Source of the DNA: Candidatus Enterousia sp.
GTDB taxonomy: Bacteria; Pseudomonadota; Alphaproteobacteria; Rs-D84
Assembly: GCA_045613785.1 (NCBI GenBank)
Contig: JAZLBQ010000026.1
Span: 12,697 to 76,696, forward strand
DNA: 64,000 bases
Direction of reading: 5' to 3'
This document shows positions 38,698 through 45,338 of this stretch, one piece after another. A program made the position numbers and the translations under genes. The first letter of the stretch is position 1. Every line of letters starts with the position of its first letter. Below the pieces are notes generated by a model, which saw only the letters and a list, made by a program, of their open reading frames with translations, was not told the DNA's origin and did not search any database.

Positions 38698-38774
38698 CGC
38701 GGGGTAGAGCAGCCCGGTAGCTCGTCAGGCTCATAACCTGAAGGTCAATGGTTCAAATCCATTCCCCGCAACCA
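38698..38774 (+). tRNA. tRNA-Met (CAT), initiator-like
   Basis: CGCGGGGTAGAGCAGCCCGGTAGCTCGTCAGGCTCATAACCTGAAGGTCAATGGTTCAAATCCATTCCCCGCAACCA: a C1 x A72 mismatch and strong similarity to E. coli tRNA-fMet, but only 2 GC pairs in the anticodon stem. Confidence 0.8.
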
Positions 38775-39064
38775 GAATTCCGCCCCATTTTCACCCTTTT
38801 GCTACCTATTTGCTACCAAGAACAACCATTAAAGATAAACAAAATCATACATTATTAAGAATTGACATCTGATTTGAACATACTAGAATTCAAGCATAAT
38901 CAAAAGAATTCTTATTTTTCTAACAATACCTAACCCAACTTCAAATACACACAGGGGACGGGGGGGGGAGCAAGGTATAAGCCATAAAAAACACAAATCG
39001 GTCTTGAACTAAATAAAATAGAACAAGAATTAAACCAAACATCGTATCTTATTACTATACAATA

Positions 39065-39739
39065 TCAAACATTCTGGCTTATAAACTTCTCATTTACTAT
39101 TTCTTTTGTTTTATGCATCAAATACAATCTCATCAAATGTGAAAATGTTTCCGTTGTCGGTTTTATAATATCCCAAACCAACAATTCTGTATCAAACACA
39201 CCTGTTTTCATCCATTTTTCTTCAAGTTTTTCATAAACATAAATCATACTTTGGCCAACATATTTATAATCAAAACTATAAACCTTTCTTTCTTGTGGGT
39301 TAAGACTAGGAATAGCACTTGCCGCTATTGCCATTCCCATAAATGCAAACTTTGGTTCAAATGTTTGATAATCCCAACACGCTGAAACACCTATTATATT
39401 TCCATACTTATCCCACAACAGCCATGTATAGGTATCCAATGAGTTATTATAAGTCGGAACCAAATGCTTAAAATACCAATCCGTCCTATCCAGACAAATA
39501 TCCTTTAGCAAAGGATAATTTCCAACAAGTTTTTCAACATTGTTAAAATCACCAGCATATTCAAATAATAATGGTCCTGTTTCTCTGTTATAAGAAAACA
39601 TCATAATGGTGCTTATCTCAGAATTAATACCGTTGTCTTTTAAGATTTTATAATTTATCTCAAACCAATCTTTTGAATATTGTGTATAAACTGGCAATTT
39701 TACTTTTTTTTGAAATAACTTTTTAATTATATTTGTCAT
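39065..39739 (-). CDS. hypothetical protein (island cargo)
   Basis: 224 aa, very AT-rich codon usage; no motif recognised. Confidence 0.45.
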   Translation of the reverse strand: MTNIIKKLFQKKVKLPVYTQYSKDWFEINYKILKDNGINSEISTIMMFSYNRETGPLLFEYAGDFNNVEKLVGNYPLLKDICLDRTDWYFKHLVPTYNNSLDTYTWLLWDKYGNIIGVSACWDYQTFEPKFAFMGMAIAASAIPSLNPQERKVYSFDYKYVGQSMIYVYEKLEEKWMKTGVFDTELLVWDIIKPTTETFSHLMRLYLMHKTKEIVNEKFISQNV

Positions 39740-39747
39740 ATTTCCCC

Positions 39748-40410
39748 CTATTCAGACACCACGTTTTCTCTCTTTCTTTCCAATTCTAAAATATCTCTAA
39801 ACTGGTAGGTATATGTAAAAATTTTATCCATATACATATTATCACCAGCCCAATACTTATCAGAAATATACCCCAAATATATTTTATCTTTATAAAACTT
39901 TATTTCTGTCAAAAATAACGTTTTTCTACAAGGCACTAACTCTGTATTAAATACAGGATATGAATTATTAAAAGCATTCATATAACCATACCCCACGATA
40001 GTTTTTGACCCCGTATAAACAGAACCAGCATAATTAGCTTTTTCACAAACATCCGGCACAGATATACTATATACATTAATTTCCCTTCTTACCTTTACAG
40101 GATTTTTGCATTTATAATTATTTATTTCTTTATCATAGTCTCGCTTAGTCATTTTTATACCCGACCTTGCGTAACCAACATTTGTATTAAACGGGTCATT
40201 GGTATAAAATGGATTTTCATCCAATTCTTTAAACCCAGTACTAAATTCTGCACCTTCAAAAACAATGCAAAAATCATCCGATTTTAAATACTGTTCAATT
40301 TTGTGCATATTTTCATAATCATAACCACTACCTTCAAAACACCTATCTACACAAGGTTCCATTACACATCCAAACAACAAAAAAACAGACAATAAAAACG
40401 CCCTATTCAT
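39748..40410 (-). CDS. hypothetical lipoprotein (island cargo)
   Basis: Start at MNRAFLLSVFLLFGCV, a lipobox-like segment; Cys- and Tyr-rich. Confidence 0.45.
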   Translation of the reverse strand: MNRAFLLSVFLLFGCVMEPCVDRCFEGSGYDYENMHKIEQYLKSDDFCIVFEGAEFSTGFKELDENPFYTNDPFNTNVGYARSGIKMTKRDYDKEINNYKCKNPVKVRREINVYSISVPDVCEKANYAGSVYTGSKTIVGYGYMNAFNNSYPVFNTELVPCRKTLFLTEIKFYKDKIYLGYISDKYWAGDNMYMDKIFTYTYQFRDILELERKRENVVSE

Positions 40411-40878
40411 ACCACACCCCTTATAAAAAAATACCGTCAACAAGGGAATATTGACGGTCGGGTGGCTTCAAAACATCAAGTAAATGCCCCGTTGCTTTCA
40501 GAATAATCCTATTATATAACAACGGACACCCGACCACAGGTCAGGCAAAACGGTGCGAACACACCATTTAGAATATGGATAACGATGCAATTCGCACCGT
40601 ACTTGATGGGTTTTGAAGGCCCCGAACCCGCTAGTCCCCTATCGGATTCAATGCTTATGATAACAATAAATACCTATAAATGCAAAACAAAAACCGGCCC
40701 ACCACAACTATTAAATAACCAACAACAAAAGCCCGTATTTTAATACTAACAGACCTTTTAGATTATATTTAAACACAAACAACTTAATTAGCTTGTATTA
40801 AAACATTGACTATTTGTTTTGCTTGTATTAAAATACAATCTATATAAATAGGTTATATTAAAATAAAAGGTAATAAAA

Positions 40879-43583: not shown

Positions 43584-43591
43584 GTATTACT

Positions 43592-44596
43592 TTAACCTAT
43601 TTTATAAATTTTTACAAAGCTTGTTTTACTTGTTCCTTTTGAACCACTGGCACCATCACCACCATTGACACAGTCCGTGTCACACCACTGCCCACTTGAT
43701 TCACATCCCGACTGATAAAAAAAACACATGCCACCACCACCACCGCCACCATACGAAATTGCCGTCGTCCCAGCACAAGAAAACACAACATTTTCTCCAC
43801 CCTTTCCACCATAACCATAATTAGAGGTCAAAGAATTTTCTTTTTTATTTTTTACAGTTCCACCATCACCACCGGCACTTGCAGTTGCGTTACTACCACC
43901 TGCAATATAAGAATACGAAGAACTTGCCTCACCTCCTATTCCGCCACCAATATTATTTGAACCACCACCGCCAGCACCACAATAACCACGTGCCTGGTAT
44001 TTAATTGTTGACCCATTATTTATGGTTTTATCTGCCGTAATACCACCGCCACCGCCATAACAAACGTCAAACAAAGCATACCCCCCACCATTCAAACCAC
44101 TCACTGTTCCTGTGATACACTTTGAACCAACCGCCCCTGTTGCCCTGATTACACGTCCTTCAACAACCAACAACGAATCCACCCCTGACGCACCACCACC
44201 AGAAATCTGATGTGAATTCGCCCTTTTGCTATCATTACCATCGCCACCACGAAAAACATCAATCACTGTTTCTTGGTTTATTTTGAAAATACTTGAAACA
44301 ATTTCACTATCAAAACGTTGAGTTCCAATTCCGGACTGACAAGACGCAGGTTTTCCCCCTGTTCCACCACGCAATTCTGCCCGATAAATTCCTGCTTCCA
44401 ACCGCACAGAATTACAGGTATTTATCGAGTTTTCTTCATACACCAGTGTTTCAGATCCATCATAAATTCCACCTTCTACTGGGATTAAAGCTACGTGAAA
44501 AACCTCGCCTGCGGCGTTTTTTATATGCATAGCAGGCGACGTCAACTGTTGCTGTTGTGCAACAATTTGAATATTATCAACATTTATTACAGGCAT
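43592..44596 (-). CDS. glycine-rich protein, paralogue B (no obvious signal peptide)
   Basis: 334 aa; the same conserved blocks as paralogue A; tandem duplicate 8 nt upstream. Confidence 0.55.
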   Translation of the reverse strand: MPVINVDNIQIVAQQQQLTSPAMHIKNAAGEVFHVALIPVEGGIYDGSETLVYEENSINTCNSVRLEAGIYRAELRGGTGGKPASCQSGIGTQRFDSEIVSSIFKINQETVIDVFRGGDGNDSKRANSHQISGGGASGVDSLLVVEGRVIRATGAVGSKCITGTVSGLNGGGYALFDVCYGGGGGITADKTINNGSTIKYQARGYCGAGGGGSNNIGGGIGGEASSSYSYIAGGSNATASAGGDGGTVKNKKENSLTSNYGYGGKGGENVVFSCAGTTAISYGGGGGGGMCFFYQSGCESSGQWCDTDCVNGGDGASGSKGTSKTSFVKIYKIG

Positions 44597-44734
44597 AGTC
44601 CCTCAAAATACCTACTCTAATCATAGAAAAAAAACATCACATTGAGCAAGTCATAAAGAAAGAAACAATAAAGTAATTGCGACATATTCATAAAAAGTCT
44701 TAAAATAGCATTAAACAAAGACAGGCAAACAGAT

Positions 44735-45310
44735 ATGAAAAAGATAATCGCAACAATTTTACTATTTATTTTCAGCACCCTGCCAGGACAATCCAAAGAT
44801 TTTGCCCCATATCTTGGTGTTGATATAGGATTAAACATTGCACAATACACATCAGACTACGGTCTGGACAAGAATTATTACAACGGAACAATCAACGCAG
44901 GTGCACGCATTGGCAGTAATTTTGGAATAGAATTATTTTATACTCACACGCTACCCAACGAAGTTGATTATGTTTTTTCGGCTGAAACAATAACCAACCA
45001 AGTTTATTATAATGCATTTGGTTTTGACATTTATGCATATTATAACCTGCCATCGAACTTTGATTTTTTCACATCATTTGGGGTTGCAAATTATAAAACA
45101 TATAACAAATTGACCTATACCACACCGTTCGATGAAGCATCTGCCAAGACAGACTTTACCAACACCACGACCCGATTTGGAATAGGCCTGTTATACACAT
45201 TTTCTGACGATAATGTATCAGGTCTTATTCAATATCAATATGCCCCGATAAACAATGAAATAATAAATACTATATCTGAATTTTCGATTGGTTTTCGATA
45301 TATATTCTAA
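44735..45310 (+). CDS. small outer-membrane beta-barrel protein (OmpA/OmpW-like porin family)
   Basis: 191 aa; signal peptide, alternating aromatic/hydrophilic strands, C-terminal ...GFRYIF. Confidence 0.6.
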   Translation: MKKIIATILLFIFSTLPGQSKDFAPYLGVDIGLNIAQYTSDYGLDKNYYNGTINAGARIGSNFGIELFYTHTLPNEVDYVFSAETITNQVYYNAFGFDIYAYYNLPSNFDFFTSFGVANYKTYNKLTYTTPFDEASAKTDFTNTTTRFGIGLLYTFSDDNVSGLIQYQYAPINNEIINTISEFSIGFRYIF

Positions 45311-45338
45311 AAAAATCCCCGGAAAGGGGATTTATTTT
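45309..45338. terminator. bidirectional hairpin terminator
   Basis: aaaaaaatccccggaaaggggatttatttt, between the OMP gene(+) and rfbD(-). Confidence 0.75.

Follow-up and report, generated by a model that had tools for sequence, protein, structure and literature searches.

The 64-kb stretch of DNA analysed here, called the window at its full length, came from Candidatus Enterousia, a gut alphaproteobacterium of the order Rs-D84. Enterousia belongs to an uncultured order, and its reported genomes measure ~0.75-1.0 Mb, mostly <1 Mb (PMC12306168). In the window, LpxC, LpxK and DUF374 genes lie upstream of an initiator-type tRNA-Met, and the DNA on the other side of that tRNA, from 38775 to 42138, is very probably the decayed and immobilised remnant of one of the small integrative islands (~4.5-8 kb, a single family) that occupy the 3' end of this tRNA in Enterousia. 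Nine features make up the remnant and its two borders:

38698-38774, plus strand: initiator-type tRNA-Met(CAT), called by ARAGORN and by Rfam (64 bits); the integration target (attB/attL).
38775-39064, plus strand: relic of the island left end, recognised by alignment to the junctions of relatives; 97.4% identical to locus L137.
39065-39739, minus strand: o224, cargo gene 2 of a leader-controlled operon; a near-orphan.
39748-40410, minus strand: o231, cargo gene 1, a predicted lipoprotein (MNRAFLLSVFLLFGC) with 99% amino acid identity to L061.
40426-40652, minus strand: leader RNA of ~230 nt, with its promoter (40657-40686) just outside and an intrinsic terminator at 40433-40458.
40691-40878, no strand: divergent control region between the leader promoter and the Fic gene, G+C content 0.245.
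40879-41976, plus strand: SoFic-type class II Fic gene, 365 aa, with Fic_N and Fic domains (Pfam) and a PADLOC SoFic match.
41974-42138, minus strand: remnant of a P4-type tyrosine integrase, codons ~336-392 (57 codons), including LGHKSTSETQVYSRL with the catalytic Tyr.
42133-42540, minus strand: ASCH/PDC-M11B gene (Pfam PF04266, PADLOC, PHROGs), a backbone gene.

Relatives were gathered by scanning 185,579 species-representative genomes for the DUF374 protein whose gene immediately precedes the tRNA. This gave 80 loci, all from Candidatus Enterousia or from other metagenome-assembled genomes (MAGs) of gut Alphaproteobacteria (ruminants, humans, birds and other animals), and gene order at the tRNA was tabulated by tblastn over 86 loci (L numbers). 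An original prediction, made from the sequence alone, had described an initiator-like tRNA-Met, and ARAGORN, Rfam and the initiator hallmarks C1xA72 and A11:U24, read straight from the sequence, agreed. The tRNA has a promoter-like site of its own (38648-38676) and is 100% identical to the tRNA at the empty site of L007, and its last 37 nt are the repeat that is duplicated in intact islands. Island DNA starts right at its 3' end: an island-type junction follows the CCA, whereas the native sequence of L007 differs. This junction (gaattccgcccc...) is a degenerate version, with an internal deletion of ~50 nt, of the island-specific agattccgcccagttttctgggc... that stands directly after the full tRNA in L017, L018, L048 and L061. 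The relic retains an inward promoter (TTGACA-16-TAGAAT, 38862-38889) followed by a G9 tract at 38960-38968, which the original prediction had noticed but placed one base off, at 38961-38969. In L018 and L048, a G7 tract lies between the promoter and the ribosome-binding site (RBS) and ATG of the first island gene; where those islands begin that gene, the window has a dead start codon, ATA (38984-38986). A phase-variation switch was considered for the G9 tract and rejected; the window has lost the first island gene and has ATA in place of its ATG, which makes the tract a relic.

On insertion at a tRNA 3' end, islands and satellites with P4-type tyrosine integrases come to be flanked by two copies of the 3' part of that tRNA, attL and attR, and loss of the integrase and attR is a well-known fate of such islands as they decay. 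Several of the relatives possessed a second, partial tRNA copy with an integrase between that copy and the full tRNA. In L017, L051 and L061 the repeated part was the final 37 nt of the tRNA, in L062 and L038 the final 48 nt, and attR was followed by the native terminator. The 48-nt repeat of L038 surrounded 2.9 kb without an integrase match. The gene order in L027, L037, L048 and L061 was Bro-N (PDC-S13), P4-type integrase (392 aa), HNH, DUF5677, leader RNA with variable cargo, AlpA-like Xis and tRNA (Bro-N was not detected in L037 and L048), and other relatives carried subsets of it. Full-length integrases occurred at the site in seven species with 82-99% identity, alongside HNH, DUF5677, Bro-N and Xis in most. 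The 7.7-kb island of L061 encoded Bro-N, a 392-aa integrase (Arm-DNA-bind_3 and Phage_integrase domains), HNH, DUF5677, o231 (99%), o224 (96%), a 203-aa protein (p203), an HTH_17 Xis-like protein and a 261-aa protein (p261). The last of these had a sub-threshold Pfam match only, and neither p203 nor a 285-aa protein of L002 matched Pfam, PADLOC or PHROGs. The L061 Bro-N (2291-3121) matched PADLOC PDC-S13 (E = 2.9e-126) and phrog_15286 and, like its counterparts in most intact islands, preceded the integrase, suggesting a defence candidate within the island backbone itself. Two metagenome contigs (L133 and L136) represented a compact intact subtype with an o224-like gene ~240 bp from the tRNA, as in the window.

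The Enterousia islands resemble other P4-type tRNA islands in their use of the tRNA 3' end, terminal integrase, AlpA/HTH_17 Xis and variable, often anti-phage, cargo. They differ in their target, an initiator tRNA-Met in a genus with small genomes; in their size of ~4.5-8 kb, with replication, capsid-hijack and transfer genes not detected; and in the position of the integrase at the far (attR) end, transcribed toward the tRNA. The window copy differs further in that only 57 codons of its integrase are left, joined in frame to a gene of the host. A viral assignment of the family was discarded, with just one distant (27%) integrase relative in IMG/VR. Two loci showed additional att-like copies: L135 carried tandem islands with two integrases and a 37-nt att copy at 7242-7278, and L137, whose o224 region is 97% identical to the window, had an extra 20-nt copy of the tRNA 3' end at 1358-1377, ~150 bp from the full tRNA.

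Direct repeats of the tRNA 3' end thus flank the elements of L017, L051, L061, L062 and L038; in the window, by contrast, no second copy was found anywhere in the 64 kb with 25-mer and 18-mer patterns at <=3 mismatches or with a general repeat search, including the vicinity of 42.1 and 45.3 kb, where the original prediction had suggested that a partial repeat might lie. Lacking an attL/attR pair, the element in the window is classed as a decayed derivative of the family and not as one of its functional members. It also lacks a Xis gene, and its integrase is reduced to codons ~336-392 of a gene that is intact (392 aa) in the sister islands. Over 157 nt (41987-42143), the window is 95-97% identical in DNA to the 3' ends of the intact integrase genes of L061, L017, L018 and L133, so the integrase-like peptide of the original prediction is a genuine remnant and not a chance match. 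It had been described as a frameshifted C-terminus of ~55 codons, and here the frameshift does not stand, since the remnant lies in the ASCH frame with only a TGA between them. Nor does a remnant ATG overlap the ASCH stop codon, as had been proposed; TCATGA contains an ATG only in another frame, and the corresponding letters of intact integrases are TCATGG.

A codon-level alignment placed the deletion junction at 42139/42138, between GAT and TCA. The window reads GTG TAT TTG GAT/TCA TGA CAG GCG, intact integrases read ATG GGT TCA TGG CAG GCG and the native ASCH gene ends GTT TAT GTT GAT AAA TAA. The ASCH stop codon TGA is therefore the integrase Trp336 codon TGG with one G-to-A change. In L005 (1336-1875) the same stop codon reads AGA, giving an open reading frame (ORF) called as a 179-aa fusion of ASCH and the integrase C-terminus, and just the last 46-68 integrase codons were also kept in L028 (2300-2497), L046 (6084-6246) and L071 (5268-5408). 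Such short stubs in several genomes may reflect repeated erosion from the attR side that halted at selected cargo. Comparison with the intact islands shows that, in the window lineage, a deletion from the attR side took attR, Bro-N and integrase codons 1-335, and that integrase codon 336 was thereby joined in frame to the penultimate ASCH codon, with a TGG that became TGA now ending ASCH. A SoFic-type Fic gene stands in place of the HNH/DUF5677 module.

Without integrase, Xis and attR, the remnant would be incapable of excision. One could suppose instead that it is still mobile as a non-autonomous element excised in trans by the integrases of sister islands, given that the genus has intact sister integrases with 96% identity across the shared stub and that tandem islands (L135) and an extra 20-nt tRNA 3'-end copy (L137) occur at the site. 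We consider this extremely improbable, as the window holds no second att copy at <=3 mismatches, the deletion junction shows that attR was removed, and no related integrase is encoded within the 64 kb examined.

The extent of the remnant was apparent from L007, the closest relative, with shared-gene DNA ~90-98% identical and proteins 93-98% identical. Its gene order is tRNA-ASCH-Gly1-Gly2-OMP-rfbD-rfbC-o203-VirB4 (Gly1 and Gly2 being glycine-rich paralogues and OMP an outer membrane protein), with no insertion, and tblastn found none of o224, o231, Fic or the integrase fragment at this locus. The L007 tRNA is followed by its native terminator and, 39 nt on, by the ASCH stop codon. DNA identity between the window and L007 is at least 90% from ~42450 rightward and 65-71% across 42100-42400. 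By this comparison, the island-derived DNA is 38775-42138 (~3.4 kb) and not 38698-45338; a foreign ASCH allele, whose 3' two-thirds (to ~42450-42503) arrived with the Fic block, adds to the insert, with a crossover placed near 42450-42503. Since L007 has ASCH, the Gly-rich pair and the OMP without an island, the alignments make these genes variable chromosomal backbone and not cargo.

The original prediction had drawn one degraded island from 38698 to 45338 that included ASCH, the Gly-rich pair and the OMP and ended before rfbD. The whole tRNA-to-VirB4 interval does vary in Enterousia, with the Gly-rich pair and rfbDC each present in some species and missing in others; ASCH has matches to a PADLOC defence-candidate model and to phage PHROGs, and a terminator-like hairpin with a T-run does lie at 45313-45333, before rfbD. 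That hairpin is no island boundary, however: L007 carries ASCH-Gly1-Gly2-OMP-rfbDC at 82-98% DNA identity without an island, and in intact islands attR comes just beyond Bro-N and the integrase, with Gly-rich or OMP genes in none of them. The G+C content of the Gly/OMP block (0.34-0.45) is backbone-like, and its 72% identity to L001 is under the 83% of o203-VirB4 and far under the 97% of the island segments. A single island of that length is thus very improbable. The core of the original prediction, a tRNA-targeted element that has lost its integrase, nevertheless holds, for the site is empty in L007 and other Enterousia carry intact islands at the same tRNA. On each of the three counts that could have spoken against an island, the result supports one: gene order at the tRNA is not the same in all relatives, the composition deviates and the integrase match is not due to chance.

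The G+C content of 38775-42138 is 0.31, compared with 0.394 for the whole window, a deviation typical of a tRNA island. By gene, it is 0.275 for Fic, 0.30 for o224 and 0.31 for o231, in agreement with the earlier description of two AT-rich hypothetical genes, one encoding a lipoprotein (lipobox LFGC). Together with the empty site in L007, segments of 95-98% identity beside core DNA of 75-83% pointed to horizontal spread. The remnant is a mosaic: 38780-39742 is 97.4% identical to L137, 39078-40687 is 97.5% identical to L061, and 40424/40625-42503 is 95-98% identical to L001-L006 (97.4% to L001 for 40625-42503), while core DNA is only 75% identical to L061 (the stretch ending in the tRNA) and 83% to L001 (o203-VirB4). 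Recombination at conserved anchors would explain how segments of 95-98% identity from different donors came to lie beside such a core. Pieces of the remnant would therefore still move between Enterousia species by homologous recombination, with crossovers at the tRNA, the leader RNA, the integrase 3' stub and the ASCH 5' end. The DNA retained would be cargo under selection, namely SoFic and the o231 and o224 operon.

These data could also be taken to mean that no site-specific island ever existed here, and that an integrase fragment hitch-hiked into a recombination hot spot beside the tRNA. The window copy has no att repeat, the block of Fic, integrase stub and ASCH is 95-98% identical in at least three flanking contexts (L001, L002 and the window) with breakpoints at conserved sequences, and the right-hand crossover falls within ASCH. 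Yet it is the left end of the island itself that adjoins the tRNA, running straight into cargo as it does in L137 and L133, and the order and orientation of cargo, leader, module and integrase 3' end match those of intact islands exactly. As an account of origin we regard the hot spot as improbable; it largely describes the present spread of the remnant, and in that respect is compatible with descent from an integrative island.

Several points weigh against such descent or against parts of it. No att repeat survives in the window, and the integrase-mediated origin of this copy is thus inferred by homology to intact islands and not directly seen. An identical 365-aa Fic protein occurs on nine metagenome contigs, and in 6/6 of those examined Fic already stands beside the truncated integrase; an intact island carrying Fic was not found among the relatives examined. 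The Fic protein scored 134.9 bits against NCBIfam NF046030, for which the equivalog cut-off is 550, and is a family member but not an equivalog by the NCBI rule. Homologous recombination may either have brought the remnant into the window lineage or have removed it from L007. The relatives are MAG or metagenome contigs throughout, in which assembly errors in repeats are possible. We conclude that the locus holds a genuine but ordinary decayed tRNA island that met the textbook fate, with integrase and attR lost and cargo kept. Despite the small genomes of Enterousia, the interval after the initiator tRNA is a busy hot spot for integration and recombination, and the live mini-island family with its defence-type cargo (SoFic, PDC-S13 Bro-N and the HNH/DUF5677 pair) implies that mobile immunity persists under genome reduction. 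The locus also offers a case of domestication resolved to the base pair, in which a mutated integrase codon now serves a host gene as its stop, and the remnant would still spread by homologous recombination.

The Fic protein of the remnant matched the Pfam families Fic (67 bits) and Fic_N (64 bits) and comprised an N-terminal inhibitory motif, a catalytic core and a C-terminal winged-helix-like domain. The catalytic motif HxFx(D/E)GNGRxxR was present as HPFEDGNGRVGR. The inhibitory motif (S/T)xxxE(G/N) lay N-terminal to the Fic core on the same chain as SSRLEG, which aligned with SSEIEN of SoFic. Fic classes are defined by the position of the inhibitory motif (PMC12249575), and SSRLEG together with HPFEDGNGRVGR therefore makes this a class II Fic, as originally predicted. 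Similarity to SoFic extended nearly from end to end, including the C-terminal domain: the PADLOC SoFic model matched residues 17-361 of 365 (305 bits, E = 1.7e-91), and the SoFic structures 3EQX and 3ZCN in PDB matched residues 25-343 (E ~8e-28, phmmer ~100 bits). The protein thus shares the inhibitory helix motif, the HPFxxGNGRxxR core and the C-terminal domain with SoFic of Shewanella oneidensis (3EQX/3ZCN) and with Sofic of E. coli (PMC12249575). It is nonetheless divergent from SoFic (~100 bits) and under the NCBIfam equivalog cut-off, and no AS1-like small gene was evident downstream of it on the same strand. The 47-aa remnant ORF was considered as an AS1-like SoFic antitoxin (both are 47 aa, PMC12249575) and rejected, as it is the integrase C-terminus.

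Defence genes commonly sit on mobile elements, and the window gene resembles SoFic in its location on a mobile-element remnant. An anti-phage defence role and toxicity have been described for Sofic (PMC12249575), and characterised homologues AMPylate targets in what would be a toxic, abortive-infection form of defence. The window Fic gene is accordingly a candidate abortive-infection or anti-phage defence gene. Upstream of it, the control region consists of an imperfect palindrome of ~130 bp (self reverse-complement match 40736-40865) with repeated GTATTAAAA motifs and contains a promoter-like site for Fic at 40806-40834. Repeated GCTTGTATTAAAA(C/T)A motifs were also noted in the palindrome at 40720-40870. 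Lying between the leader and Fic promoters, the palindrome could be a shared operator region.

Of all the parts of the locus, the leader RNA is the most novel; it lies on the minus strand in the 435-bp gap between o231 and Fic (fold z = -5.2), and its terminator lies 14 nt before the o231 ATG. The original prediction had noticed neither this RNA nor the SoFic identity of the Fic gene. Searches with nhmmer and a covariance model found 38 copies in Enterousia loci (L002-L086) in addition to that in the window. Two more were found in IMG/VR phage contigs (L104, 5257-5439; L109, 13240-13456), where a pattern search gave 45 matches, 43 of them chance and two real; both precede lipoprotein genes, and one adjoins P2-like tail genes while the other is near a terminase. 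An ORF almost always follows within 12-25 nt, and the products are mostly exported (lipoproteins, OMP barrels, an autotransporter, DUF805), with some DNA methylases or PLD nuclease among them. The locus L002 has the same layout of tRNA, leader, Fic, stub and ASCH as the window, but with two different secreted proteins behind the leader.

Strong covariation supported the predicted structure, with 82% of cells paired compared to ~40% in slid controls and 239 compensatory cells compared to 49-78. Two helices share the strand GGTCGGGG and both are supported by compensatory changes. In P3, GGTCGGGG pairs with CCCTGAC (96.7% paired, 6/6 pairs covarying), and in a long-range antiterminator helix, which overlaps the 5' arm of the terminator, it pairs with CCCCGACC (91% paired, 7/10 pairs covarying). 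All three strands are altered together in L063, a three-way compensation. RNAalifold had first offered a different long-range GGG/CCC pairing, which was dropped for the better-supported S4:S5 helix. The leader thus combines a promoter, a covarying domain and a terminator just before an ORF with two mutually exclusive helices, one of which overlaps that terminator, as in an attenuator. In these respects, including the multi-helix domain, the terminator 12-25 nt before the RBS and a single strand with two partners, it is like riboswitch and attenuation leaders; unlike those of metabolite riboswitches, its downstream genes are very heterogeneous, ranging over lipoproteins, OMPs, an autotransporter, DNA methylases and PLD nuclease.

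Rfam searches of the region, the leader alone and the whole window returned tRNAs only, with no leader family at threshold. The copy in L018 matched the full model of RF02221, sRNA-Xcc1, with 36.7 bits (E = 4e-5; gathering threshold 53 bits), and the window copy gave no match to RF02221 at E up to 10. As the score is below the gathering threshold, the leader was not filed as a member of that family but only as a distant relative or variant. The closing helix of RF02221 corresponds to the long-range helix of the leader, and its hairpin A to leader P4. An Xcc1-like three-way junction on the 38 Enterousia copies had 88.7% of cells paired and 117 compensatory cells, compared to 20-25 in slid controls; the model that built the leader alignment contained neither the closing helix nor the outer stem of hairpin A. 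The 3' half of the leader thus has the same three-way junction as sRNA-Xcc1, with a G/C-rich closing helix (GGNCGGGG/CCCCGNCC), a hairpin A with an AUAnAAUA internal loop and GAAA loop, and a hairpin B. sRNA-Xcc1 occurs in integron cassettes upstream of symE, in APSE phages and in Xylella genomic islands (PMC12444791, PMC7313666, PMC12189769). Both RNAs are found on mobile DNA (integrons, transposons, plasmids, phages and islands in the case of sRNA-Xcc1). Each has multiple copies within a genome and stands immediately before accessory genes, such as symE in Xanthomonas integrons and ORF6N in an APSE phage for sRNA-Xcc1. The leader is, however, longer (~230 nt versus 87 nt), with an extra 5' domain of four helices; it carries a promoter of its own, and its intrinsic terminator overlaps the closing helix. 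Its covarying alternative fold resembles a cis-acting switch, in contrast to the trans-acting small RNA reported for Xcc.

We read the leader as an Xcc1-like module within a terminator/antiterminator switch, in which the structure is computed and the switching and its trigger are inferred. From their own promoter, o231 and o224 would be transcribed through the leader, either terminating (P3 and terminator) or reading through (antiterminator, Xcc1-like fold). It is possible, though on the doubtful side, that the leader represents a new class of cis-acting regulatory RNA, in which an Xcc1-like three-way junction is set within a terminator/antiterminator/anti-antiterminator switch and acts as a portable cassette head, for expression and recombination, in front of accessory genes in the islands, prophages and chromosomes of Rs-D84. 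If so, the sRNA-Xcc1 family itself may be cis-regulatory, possibly sensing a ligand or factor, and not a trans-acting small RNA, and the conserved leader would double as a homology anchor for swaps of cargo cassettes between islands. The link between this switch architecture and the poorly understood sRNA-Xcc1 opens the way to direct tests of what that family of mobile-element RNAs does.

The two genes behind the leader in the window, o231 and o224, had no family match in Pfam, NCBIfam, PADLOC or PHROGs. The likeliest start of o231 is the ATG at 40410, because an upstream TTG start would overlap a terminator, and this gives a product of 220 aa with the lipobox LFGC. For o224, only three protein clusters were found in 5.8 billion sequences; the window protein has 96% amino acid identity to that of the intact L061 island, and exact-sequence look-ups of o224 and Gly1 returned no record.

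To the right of the remnant and ASCH, the window continues with genes of the backbone:

42600-45310, no strand: backbone block, not island; Gly1, Gly2 and OMP are all present in island-free L007.
42600-43583, minus strand: Gly1, tandem Gly-rich paralogue.
43592-44596, minus strand: Gly2, tandem Gly-rich paralogue.
44735-45310, plus strand: OMP beta-barrel (Pfam).

The original prediction had named an ASCH gene, two tandem glycine-rich paralogues and a small beta-barrel OMP here. The ASCH assignment was marginal in Pfam (PF04266, 21.6 bits versus a cut-off of 21.2) and firm with PDC-M11B (E = 4.4e-38) and phrog_3136 (E = 2.7e-37). No neighbour of ASCH in the window or in L001 and L002 matched the PDC-M11A partner model, and nothing lies between ASCH and Gly1 in the window; a radical SAM gene beside ASCH in L001 and L002 was considered as the PDC-M11A partner and not supported, as it gave a weak pVip-like match only. 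Pfam likewise bore out the small beta-barrel OMP. The two tandem glycine-rich paralogues are 44% identical to each other, and neither matched Pfam, NCBIfam, PADLOC or PHROGs. Their family comprised 206 homologue clusters, often from adjacent pairs, and every cluster with a named source was a hypothetical protein of an alphaproteobacterial MAG. At this locus, the pair was found only in L001-L003, L007 and L012 besides the window. Both proteins lack a signal peptide and are cytoplasmic by sequence. An AlphaFold2 (AF2) model of Gly2 (pLDDT 85) was matched over its whole length to the TNF-like and glycine-rich domain (GRD) of ALK/LTK (PF12810; PDB 7LS0, 7NX0), with a Foldseek probability of 1.0 and E = 4e-6 but a TM score of only 0.25-0.29; a mycobacteriophage tail-tip protein was a weaker structural match to the Gly AF2 model. 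PF12810 was precomputed on 2/120 listed homologues. Unlike the ALK/LTK domain, the window proteins have no Pfam match, and the family occurs only in MAGs of gut Alphaproteobacteria, usually as tandem pairs.

Downstream of the OMP are rfbD, rfbC, the gene for a 203-aa protein and a solitary VirB4, and then housekeeping genes. Pfam confirmed RmlD (rfbD) beside the locus. The rfbD-rfbC pair (45337-46759, G+C 0.36-0.39) is variable at the locus, being missing between the OMP and the 203-aa gene in L001 and L002 and located elsewhere in the tRNA-to-VirB4 interval in other relatives. L001 (3034-5761) and L002 (3995-6717) have an extra radical SAM gene and a 580-aa gene between ASCH and the Gly-rich pair, both not in the window, and the 580-aa gene is split into 284 and 298 aa in L001. 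VirB4 and the 203-aa gene form a conserved pair (46716-49764 in the window) whose orientation and distance from the tRNA flip between species, a pattern that indicates inversions across this plasticity zone.

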